DNA of 32,000 nucleotides from assembly GCF_000392435.1 (NCBI RefSeq), contig NC_021219.1, positions 720,001 through 752,000 on the forward strand, written 5' to 3'. Origin of the DNA: Candidatus Saccharimonas aalborgensis (GTDB taxonomy: Bacteria > Patescibacteriota > Saccharimonadia > Saccharimonadales > Saccharimonadaceae). Made by a program: the position numbers and the translations under genes. The notes under the pieces were generated by a model that had not been told where the DNA came from, did no database searches, and saw only the letters and a program-made list of their open reading frames with translations. This document shows, one piece after another, positions 19,387 through 23,805 of this stretch (positions within the stretch are counted from its first letter, which is position 1; each line of letters starts with the position of its first letter).

Positions 19387-19457
19387 ATCCGTACCATCGT
19401 AGCAGAAAAGTCTCTCCGTGTCAAAGGGTGCGCCTCTGTACCAAAGCATAACAAGTA

Positions 19458-19466
19458 TGCTATGAT
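19458..19466 (+). promoter_or_regulatory. extended -10 element TGcTATGAT upstream of the 568-aa ORF
   Basis: tgctatgat at 19458-19466, the same TGnTAtaAT architecture seen upstream of ftsA, ftsZ, parA, frr, lysS and others. If it is used, the transcript would start near 19473, which favours ATG 19494 over GTG 19467 as the start codon. Confidence 0.4.
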
Positions 19467-21173
19467 GTGGAGGAAGAGAAAGTAAACATAAACATGCCGG
19501 TAGAGCAGGAGATTGGAACACACGAAGCAGCGACGCAGATGGATGCGATTGTTGCTGGCGTGCGCGAACACCATGATCTGAATGAGACAGTGCAATTTGA
19601 TGATAGTGACCCTTTGGGTGAAGAAAACGTCCAGTCTTTGACACACCACCTGGAAATGATGCTCGAGGCGGTAGAAGATTTTGGTTCGTACCGAGATGGT
19701 GATTATGTCGATGAGGAGTTTGTGCAATATGTCATACAGGGCGGATACTCGATTGAAGCAGCATCCGGGCTTATCGATGCGATCCGGAGGTGCGAAGTTG
19801 CCTTCTCTGAGGAAAATCAAGGCGAAGCAACACAGCTTCTGCGCGTTGTCGAGGCAATCCCTTCCGAGTTACTACAGGAGATATACACAGCTGATCCTGA
19901 CAACAAGGCAAACCCTATAACTGCATTACTGAATAGTATTCCGCTGGATGGCAGTCATGCAGCGCAGCTTTTGCGTATTCTCGACAAGTGTCAGGATGAA
20001 GATATGTCAACGGTTGACGCATTGACGTACCCTGAGTATATGAGGCTATTTGCTGCGATGGAGTCAAATGAGCGCGATTTTGAGCTGGCGCGCATTCCGT
20101 CTCATCCCGAGAGTACTTCATATGAAGCAATCGCTGATTTCAATCAGAGGGTTGTTAATCGTGTCTATTGGTTGATGGGTGAGCAACTTGGCCTTCCTAT
20201 GCATATCGTTGACGCTTATATTGCAAATGCGCGTTTCCGCCATACTCACCTCATGCCTAACGGGTCGGAGTTACTAACGGCGTTTGAGGGTGACCGGATA
20301 GCCGATGATATCTATGGCATCGCGGCATGTGTCGAAGCGGTAGGTATCGATGACTTTAAGCGACTCGATGAGGCGTTTACTCTGGAAACTCCTGAGATCT
20401 ATCGCCCAGAAGATTTACGCATCATGCGCGGCATACTCGATGGCGATGAAATGATACTCGAGGAACTGAGAAGGGGCGATCTGACGGTCGTATTCTTCGA
20501 TGCAAGGGGTGACACAAAGAGCGTTATCGTTGACTCAGTAAGAGCATACCGTAAAACTTCGGGGAGAGTTCTATTTTTTGAGATGTCCGGGGCTGAAACA
20601 GTAAAAGCGCGTAAGAAACAACTCGTAGAAAGAGGCCTTCACCCAAGTACCGTGGTATTTGACAGTCATGGCTCGCCGGGCTCAATAGAGGGTAATCGTG
20701 GAAAAAGTCGGTATCGAATCGTAAGTGAGCGGCGGGCAATGCGAACAAGGCGTGATGTTTTTGTGGGAGATATAGTGGATCAATTATTGAGTGATGGGTT
20801 TATGCAACCAGGTCGAGGTATTGATGACTCCAGTGGGGCGTCTGGAGCAGTTGAGATATTCTTTAGTGCATGCAGTACTGATCAAGAGGTCGATAGAGGT
20901 GTGGGTAGCACTCGCGCTAGGAGTGTCGCACAAGCTGCAATAGATGCTACGATTGGTAACCAAAATAGGGTGCTCGTCTATGGAAGCCGTGCACCAATGC
21001 ATCTTCTATGGGGCAATGGCAGGATACGTTATATTGATGACGATCACCATAATGGTACTGGTGAGGATAGGTCAGTAATGACGCGGTATACCTTCGATCC
21101 AGATCGTTTCGCGGATGAAGGAATAGTATTTGAATATATTGATGGAGTAGTACATGACAGGAGAGCAGCATGA
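19467..21173 (+). CDS. hypothetical protein with C-terminal CHAT/caspase-like (clan CD-like) His-Cys domain
   Basis: 568-aa ORF (GTG 19467, alternative ATG 19494). The N-terminal 330 aa or so are acidic and helical with no recognised family. The C-terminal region has an alternating beta/alpha pattern with [16 protein letters not shown] (His401, nt 20667-20669) and [13 protein letters not shown] (Cys469, nt 20871-20873), then ...[10 protein letters not shown]. This resembles the CHAT/DUF4347 signatures (..HG.. and ..LSACxT..). The assignment rests on motif recognition only. Confidence 0.6.
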
Positions 21174-21607
21174 GTGAGATCCCTGGTGATGTGAAGCCCA
21201 TTATCGGCGTAATCGAAAGACCGATCGATTACCGCGAGGAGTATGAGCTTCTCGCTCAACTATTAGCGCAAGTTCTCTATGAGTATCGGCAAGGACGTCC
21301 AAGTGATGGCTTCGATACGTTAATGCGTGAGGATGGAGGTCGTCTCCAGGTTGTTTCCCCGAGTCAACAAAAGCTTCGCATCAATGTGATGGAGAATGAT
21401 CAAGAAACAGGAGAAGAAATCACTGAGACAATGCACGCGGATATGATGGGGAACGAGACAGTGGTCAGTCACGGTGTTTCATCAGATAAGGATGGCGTGC
21501 TGAGCGATCTCGCGCCACTTCGCTATGATGCCTATGGATGCGAGGTACTGACTGACATGATCGAGTATCTCTTTGTCATCCAGGCAGCGAGACGCCGATC
21601 GCCATAA
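21170..21607 (+). CDS. hypothetical acidic protein, translationally coupled to the CHAT-like protein
   Basis: 145 aa. Its ATG overlaps the upstream TGA in an ATGA junction (21170-21173). No family was recognised. The protein is acidic (ENDQETGEEITETMHADMMGNE). Confidence 0.65.
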   Translation: MSEIPGDVKPIIGVIERPIDYREEYELLAQLLAQVLYEYRQGRPSDGFDTLMREDGGRLQVVSPSQQKLRINVMENDQETGEEITETMHADMMGNETVVSHGVSSDKDGVLSDLAPLRYDAYGCEVLTDMIEYLFVIQAARRRSP

Positions 21608-21633
21608 GGGGTAGACAAAAGAAATCATATCTG

Positions 21634-21650
21634 ATACCCTGAGAGGGTAT
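21634..21650 (+). terminator. hairpin closing the two-gene cassette (weak terminator candidate)
   Basis: ataccct-gag-agggtat is a perfect 7-bp stem at 21634-21650, followed by attagttt. The loop is short and the T-run weak. Confidence 0.35.
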
Positions 21651-21722
21651 ATTAGTTTAACGAAACAACTCTGCACGGATATCCTGAGTATAGGTGTGTA
21701 GAGTGAAGGGAGTAAGGATATC

Positions 21723-23100: not shown

Positions 23101-23805
23101 ATGTACGAACGCTACCAACCTCACTTCGAAAACGAGTCTCACAAAGATTTTGAGTACGATGAATCTGGTAATGAGGTTGATCTGAGGCAAGAGGCCGAAG
23201 TCTTTTCTGACCACGAGAGAATTGATAACGGTCGTGATAGTGATATCAAAACACAACTAGCAAAGCTCCGTGAGAGCTTAAGCGAGGATAGCGACGGAAT
23301 TATTCACCTTGTAATCCCGGCGTATACCTATGACTTTAGTGAAAATCCTTTTGTGGGATTAGGGACGCATCGTACCAAAACCTATGAAATATCGCGCTAT
23401 ATCGACGTAGTGTTTTTGCACCGCTTTATGTATCAAGACATTATTGTCTGTGGTTTACAGTCAAGACAGTTTGTGGATGAGGGCAGTAGGGCATCTTTTG
23501 TCAAAAAAATGCGTGAGACGGGTGGAATACCGATCGACACTCGCGAACATCGGTCGTTTGATATCCTGGGCATGGAGTTTTGTCCCTATGTTGAGTACCA
23601 TTCCACAGACGCTTTTTTCAAACTGTATCACACCGTTATGCCACGCGTTGCGGATCGACCACACTATCCGCTCGATGTTTGGTTGATTTTTGATGCAAAC
23701 GCCTACCAGGAAGTGGAGGGCGCAAGTGACTTTCGGCGGGCGTTTCGTCTGAAAAGTGGTTACGATCGTCGCGCTAGTTTACTCGGCATAGCGCAGATCA
23801 ACTAA
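23101..23805 (+). CDS. hypothetical protein (occupies the usual pyrH position)
   Basis: 234-aa ORF between tsf and frr with no recognised family. The N-terminal 65 aa are acidic. No SD precedes the ATG, and AT-rich -10-like hexamers (tattat/tataaa, 23084-23092) lie immediately upstream. Confidence 0.6.
   Translation: MYERYQPHFENESHKDFEYDESGNEVDLRQEAEVFSDHERIDNGRDSDIKTQLAKLRESLSEDSDGIIHLVIPAYTYDFSENPFVGLGTHRTKTYEISRYIDVVFLHRFMYQDIIVCGLQSRQFVDEGSRASFVKKMRETGGIPIDTREHRSFDILGMEFCPYVEYHSTDAFFKLYHTVMPRVADRPHYPLDVWLIFDANAYQEVEGASDFRRAFRLKSGYDRRASLLGIAQIN

Follow-up and report, generated by a model that had tools for sequence, protein, structure and literature searches.

What is the 568-residue protein encoded between the translation genes rpmE and rpsB of 'Candidatus Saccharimonas aalborgensis', and does its C-terminal part form a peptidase? 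The stretch of DNA analyzed, called the window below, spans 32,000 nucleotides (bases 720001-752000 of a complete 1.01-Mb single-contig genome), and an earlier note, made from its letters alone, proposed that this protein ends in a CHAT/caspase-like domain with a His-Cys dyad. Our structure predictions and comparisons show by computation that residues 337-563 adopt the caspase-hemoglobinase fold of clan CD peptidases, and the two residues of the putative dyad, His401 and Cys469, are almost without exception conserved among homologs. The features on which this statement relies are the following.

19467..21173, plus strand: the 568-aa open reading frame (ORF), with a GTG start, encoding a helical N-terminal region and a C-terminal clan CD domain
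20475..21155, plus strand: the predicted clan CD (caspase-hemoglobinase fold) peptidase-like domain, residues 337-563
20499..20582, plus strand: conserved acidic residues Asp345, Asp349, and Glu372, located at the C-terminal ends of the first two strands and in the loop that follows strand 1
20667..20672, plus strand: His401-Gly402 (CAT GGC; His codon 20667-20669), directly after strand 3
20871..20873, plus strand: Cys469 (TGC), directly after strand 4

Residues are numbered from the GTG start, as in the earlier note, whose mapping of residue 335 to nucleotide 20469 is correct. The ATG at 19494 (Met10) is an equally plausible alternative start, at which both the 79%-identical ortholog P0005 and the ESM Atlas record begin.

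Fold and dyad of the C-terminal domain

The fold is taken from a template-free AlphaFold2 model built on 143 homologs, with a mean predicted local distance difference test value (pLDDT) of 88.8 and a predicted template-modeling score (pTM) of 0.88; residues 1-45 alone are poorly defined. Residues 49-336 are helical. In the domain that follows, strands at 340-344, 368-372, 395-399, 461-467, and 501-507 are separated by helices at 353-361, 376-388, 433-444, and 487-493, a small hairpin lies between His401-Gly402 and helix 433-444, and extra hairpin strands extend up to residue 558. The result is an alpha/beta/alpha sandwich with a caspase-type central sheet, as in clan CD, and the dyad appears in the clan CD order, His-Gly after strand 395-399 and Cys after the next strand, 461-467. 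The five strands that had been proposed from about residue 335 onward are present in the model where they were placed, with His401-Gly402 following strand 3 and Cys469 following strand 4. The earlier assignment of topology and dyad placement to clan CD likewise stands, the predicted fold being of the caspase-hemoglobinase type and the 50 structural matches listed all belonging to clan CD; the position of the dyad on solved clan CD active sites is derived from topology and alignment ranges.

The best match of the domain in a Foldseek search of the PDB is Tce1 (9QPE_G; E 1.2e-3, probability 1.00), followed by the TcdB cysteine protease domain, CED-3, caspase-9, the MARTX protease domain, and SAVED-CHAT. 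After re-ranking with VIA-align, clan CD peptidases account for 50 of the 50 matches listed. Tce1 leads at 14.7, with 172 of 178 residues aligned and a root-mean-square deviation of 2.9; SAVED-CHAT (11.3), the TcdB protease domain (10.6), pro-caspases (9.5), and the MARTX protease domain (9.4) come next, and legumain (9.1), GPI8 (8.7), and C11 (8.5) stand lower. The closest fold is thus a solved DUF4347 domain, that of Tce1, and the next is a CHAT domain. A Foldseek search of BFVD gave no credible viral relative, and an ESM Atlas lead to phage clusters is therefore unsupported.

Conservation of the dyad, which the earlier note had called for as a check, proves to be far beyond chance. The family comprises at least 184 sequence clusters: among 1.84 billion cluster representatives, searched exhaustively with HMMER, 184 relatives score E<=1e-3, 92 of them E<=1e-10. 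Almost all of the relatives measure 480-875 aa, and identity to the query in a 143-sequence alignment is 15-26%, one close ortholog excepted. Over this distance His401 is present in all 142 aligned homologs and Cys469 in 140 of 141, the remaining one having Ser, and in 12 domains extracted straight from Saccharimonadia genomes the His and the Cys are the sole invariant columns. Gly402 (126/142), Asp338 (135/143), Asp345 (D or N in 139/143), Asp349 (133/143), Phe371 (129/142), and Glu372 (128/142 or 128/143) are retained in most homologs, and strong conservation extends to Pro404, Gly405, Met446, and Gly460. The domain invariably closes the protein, with a median of 0 residues after it and an N-terminal part of 210-626 residues before it.

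Several homologs depart from this pattern in ways of their own. P0123 (520 aa), the sole sequence with Ser in the Cys469 column, might use Ser as its nucleophile, be an inactive copy, or reflect a misalignment. In a subfamily that includes P0136, P0138, and L009:1495-3165 (-), the stretch from the catalytic His to the Cys contains an additional insertion bearing the motif G-Y-S-M-H-G-M-K-G; the L009 member has His-Ser in place of His-Gly and lacks a downstream partner. Among 76 family members examined with Pfam, one has a RIO1 match (E 1.4e-4), and the Kdo/WaaP kinase and Pkinase models each find a single member. All three matches may come from one protein, in which case at least one relative would fuse protein-kinase-like and clan CD domains.

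Sequence-family membership and the variable slot

The clan CD assignment rests on fold and dyad because sequence profiles detect neither CHAT, DUF4347, C80, nor C14. An hmmscan of the 568-aa protein against Pfam returns no clan CD family at E<=10, and a scan of the 76 family members at E<=1 returns none either, its sole clan CD row being Peptidase_C25 in one member (E 0.048). Searches with Pfam, NCBIfam, PADLOC, and PHROGs yield nothing meaningful for this protein or for the 145-aa protein encoded directly downstream, and single-sequence and profile searches of PDB sequences yield only noise. The DUF4347 model (PF14252) has no match at E<=10 in a six-frame translation of the protein's own genome, where the positive control was without signal, and none in 401 Patescibacteria genomes that include three family carriers, where the positive control again gave no signal. 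The CHAT model (PF12770) matches neither the 568-aa protein, nor any of the 76 family members, nor the own genome (G000), and the Peptidase C80 model (PF11713) gives no hidden Markov model match in the protein or the 76 members.

In a six-frame search, PF12770 finds true CHAT domains in four of 301 Patescibacteria genomes. The proteins concerned (L035-L039) have open frames of 682-1092 aa, and none lies in the Saccharimonadia genomes of the sample. An hhalign comparison of our domain alignment with five true CHAT domains produces a 20-column local match centered on the Cys strand at a probability of 35%; a permissive extended alignment pairs His with His and Cys with Cys at a probability of 1.7%. 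The ESM Atlas yields leads only, in the form of clusters with DUF4347 in 30% and Peptidase_C80 in 13% of members. The resemblance to CHAT/DUF4347 signatures claimed in the earlier note is thus borne out in structure, since a DUF4347 domain and, after it, a CHAT domain are the nearest solved structures, but not in sequence, where no profile matches; the clan CD, CHAT, or DUF4347 profile match to which that note had looked is absent by hmmscan and amounts, against CHAT, to the short hhalign match just given.

Because Pfam, NCBIfam, PADLOC, PHROGs, and PDB sequence models detect nothing, we file the protein as a new sequence family inside clan CD rather than as a demonstrated CHAT or DUF4347 member: its modeled fold is closest to the DUF4347/C80/CHAT branch, and it is not placed in those Pfam families. 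The fold and the chemistry of such a domain are well known. What is new is a lineage-restricted family that none of the sequence models tried can detect, its architecture of a helical region followed by a terminal clan CD domain, its coupled small partner, and the variable rpmE-rpsB slot; our literature searches turned up no account of a protein of this kind from Saccharibacteria or Patescibacteria.

The genome-level distribution covers samples of Saccharimonadia and Patescibacteria, and the metagenomic homologs carry no taxon names. A family profile finds members in 15 of 301 Saccharimonadia genomes and in six of 61 close relatives, one copy each, and among 401 genomes across the phylum the matches of a domain profile are confined to three Saccharimonadia carriers. 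The named relatives of the 568-aa protein are exclusively hypothetical proteins of 'Candidatus Saccharibacteria bacterium'. Word-indexed homolog searches with the protein, its 145-aa partner, and the domain profile return near-identical sequences only, scans of genome contigs for homologs give no match, and the own genome contains no paralog of the 568-aa protein. Matches at L005 and L006 are spurious, the ORFs there being unrelated. The best class-wide relative, L007 (G338:C2:362598-364373), has one in-frame TGA in the matched range, after which a 602-aa open frame starts; the TGA could be a start-site issue, a frameshift, or recoding.

Members of the family lie between rpmE and rpsB in the window and in five other loci (L010, L012, L014, L015, and L020), beside rpmA in L009, beside uppS in L011, and, in L016-L018, upstream of a gene read as mraZ by eye alone and not by a model search. 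Five congeneric genomes that lack the family served for a comparison of the rpmE-rpsB gap (19387-21722 in the window; L030-L034). In G004 the gap is empty, and in the other four it holds unrelated ORFs: 659 and 205 aa in G014; 164 and 278 aa in G019; 321, 379, and 153 aa in G035; and 499 aa in G012. The slot is variable and the cassette accessory, because the gap is empty or occupied by unrelated ORFs in these genomes. We rejected the idea that the slot cargo shares the N-terminal helical domain, as in a polymorphic-toxin layout, after finding no match at E<=10 when the cargo proteins were scored along with every ORF of the genome; earlier weak matches of slot cargo to the family profiles were artefacts of a tiny database, and against a genome-sized background neither the N-terminal nor the C-terminal family profile matches the slot cargo ORFs.

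The small partner, the proposed mechanism, and its alternatives

Two further features complete the cassette.

21170..21607, plus strand: the 145-aa partner ORF, whose start overlaps the stop of the 568-aa ORF
21634..21650, plus strand: a terminator-like hairpin at the end of the two-gene unit, before rpsB

Upstream of the 568-aa ORF lie prmC, a membrane protein gene, prfA, and rpmE; downstream, the 145-aa ORF is followed by rpsB, tsf, a 234-aa orphan, and frr. The orphan, at 23101-23805 (+) between tsf and frr, occupies the place usually taken by pyrH and has no Pfam, NCBIfam, PADLOC, or PHROGs match. The context had been described as free of a CRISPR, gasdermin-like, or TPR partner, and so it is: neither a tandem or CRISPR-like array nor an Rfam match occurs in the window, and the neighbors are translation genes.

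An ORF of 119-149 aa lies directly downstream of the family gene in 11 of 18 loci, starting anywhere from 46 nt upstream to 3 nt downstream of its stop. Four loci have an ATGA overlap, among them the window (21170-21173), where a GGAG also stands 6 nt upstream. The partners are similar in size and, one subgroup excepted, have no homology detectable by phmmer or hhalign; that of the window has no relatives beyond near-identical copies. A model of the 145-aa protein built on an 11-partner alignment is of low confidence (pLDDT 50) and shows a helix, five strands, and a helix.

We posit, at a probability of roughly 0.55, that the 568-aa protein is a cysteine endopeptidase whose activity is regulated and whose cognate partner is an inhibitor or immunity protein. 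The modeled clan CD domain would be a catalytically competent cysteine endopeptidase, possibly a transpeptidase, with His401 and Cys469 as its dyad. Asp345, Asp349, and Glu372, which lie along the sheet's active-site edge, are candidate pocket residues that probably give the substrate site its shape. By analogy with metacaspases, gingipains, and clostripain, the acidic cluster could favor a basic P1 residue, a suggestion we make with low confidence. The N-terminal helical region, variable in length between homologs, may select the target or hold the protease inactive. The translationally coupled 145-aa protein would be a cognate binder, in all likelihood an inhibitor or immunity protein protecting the producer from the protease and, less likely, a protease substrate, and the pair would constitute accessory cargo of the variable rpmE-rpsB slot.

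Four observations point to a role in conflict, against the epibiont's host, competitors, or phage, rather than in housekeeping: the family is patchily distributed, the slot varies, the partner diverges rapidly, and the nearest structures are a type VI secretion system (T6SS) cargo protein, a defense-associated CHAT protease, and toxin protease domains. A more specific and avowedly speculative version, which we rate as rather unlikely, would make the protein a Saccharibacteria-specific effector protease directed against the actinobacterial host or competitors, the small protein a fast-evolving immunity factor, and the rpmE-rpsB gap a lineage-wide 'arsenal' slot of orphan effector cassettes.

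Several observations weigh against a regulated protease with a dedicated partner. The 568-aa protein itself departs from the family consensus (given in brackets) at Lys351 (Asn), Ser352 (Gly), Thr378 (Asp), and Leu503 (Asp). Neither protein has a secretion signal or delivery domain or matches a known toxin, immunity, or defense model, and the nearest solved relative, Tce1, is itself only a putative protease (PMC13323088). The partner is absent in seven of the 18 loci, so the enzyme does not always need it; this absence and the missing secretion and delivery features also speak against a toxin. In phmmer and hhalign comparisons the partners across loci do not form one detectable family, and, the model of the window's partner being poor, its role is a guess from position alone.

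The alternative that survives best, which we regard as possible but on the unlikely side, is an intracellular defense or abortive-infection protease like TPR-CHAT (Csx29) or separase, in which the helical N-terminus senses a signal and switches on the caspase-fold domain, the small protein being a substrate or an effector precursor. PADLOC matches neither protein, the window contains no CRISPR, SAVED, or cyclic oligonucleotide-based antiphage signaling system (CBASS) component, and full-length Foldseek comparisons with Craspase TPR-CHAT chains are poor (probability 0.14-0.33, template-modeling score about 0.15); the structural matches of the N-terminal region in a VIA search stay within the noise range for helical folds. 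Improbable, in our estimate, is a catalytically silent or otherwise non-proteolytic domain, serving as a scaffold in the manner of the Raptor N-terminal domain or c-FLIP or as a transamidase or ligase in the manner of GPI8 or legumain-like ligases. Clan CD pseudo-enzymes typically lose the Cys or the His, and the near-absolute conservation of the dyad and of Gly402 among sequences with 17-30% identity argues for catalysis.

A housekeeping protease that processes a translation component would fit the recurrent position between rpmE and rpsB and, in L009, next to rpmA. We nevertheless hold it to be very unlikely: the family is absent from about 95% of the sampled Saccharimonadia genomes and from all other sampled Patescibacteria, the slot is empty or filled with unrelated genes in the five congeneric genomes, and other members sit beside uppS or the putative mraZ. 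An alpha/beta-hydrolase-like enzyme, with HGxPG as an oxyanion-hole motif and Cys469 as the nucleophile of a Cys-Asp-His triad, is disfavored to the point of being scarcely credible: the hydrophobic strand before HG-x-P-G and the 68-residue spacing to Cys do resemble the HG(G)PG oxyanion motif and nucleophile spacing of some alpha/beta hydrolases, but no alpha/beta hydrolase is among the top 50 of either VIA search, the residues around Cys469 do not form an Sm-x-Nu-x-Sm nucleophile elbow, and the absence of any conserved His or acidic residue C-terminal to Cys469 in the 143-sequence alignment excludes a triad of this type.

With genomes of about 1 Mb, Saccharibacteria live as obligate epibionts, and, to our knowledge, the proteins they direct at their hosts or at rivals have seldom been characterized. 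A lineage-restricted, patchily distributed caspase-fold enzyme family, unrecognized by annotation models, can now be given a candidate active site (His401/Cys469), a possible regulator, and a delimited, variable place in the genome. If the cassette is indeed a toxin-immunity or defense module, it would offer an entry point into the conflict systems of the Candidate Phyla Radiation.

Comparison with known systems

Caspases, metacaspases, legumain, and GPI8 (C14, C13) are related to the domain by fold and differ from it in sequence: their models do not match it, the pocket-forming residues differ, and a QACxG-type motif is absent from the family, in which the residues around the Cys read S-A/S-C-S. 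The C80 domains of Clostridioides difficile TcdA/TcdB and of Vibrio MARTX are parts of large toxins, whereas the 568-aa protein is not. CHAT proteins (PF12770), such as SAVED-CHAT (8TL0) and TPR-CHAT/Csx29, are set apart by their SAVED, CRISPR, or TPR partners, none of which is found at the window locus.

The closest known system is that of Tce1 (PA0256), an Hcp3-loaded cargo protein of the Pseudomonas aeruginosa H3-T6SS and a putative cysteine protease, whose C-terminal domain (residues 110-310) is similar to the protease domain of TcdB and contains His186 and Cys240 (PMC13323088). PA0256 contains a DUF4347 domain (PMC8262886), and the Tce1 paralog Tce2 is toxic to yeast in a Cys115-dependent manner (PMC13323088). 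Tce1 (9QPE chain G) has 12% sequence identity to the domain of the 568-aa protein; it is a 310-aa, T6SS-delivered protein without a neighboring immunity gene. A Pfam scan finds no Hcp, VgrG, or other T6SS family in the cassette proteins or the 76 family members. Relative to Tce1, the 568-aa protein has a 336-residue helical N-terminal region and a His-Cys spacing longer by 14 residues, and its family has a coupled small partner in most loci. The small DUF4347/Tce1 structural group extends with this family to a second phylum and to a different domain architecture, an extension that helps to define the common features of the DUF4347-like branch of clan CD.
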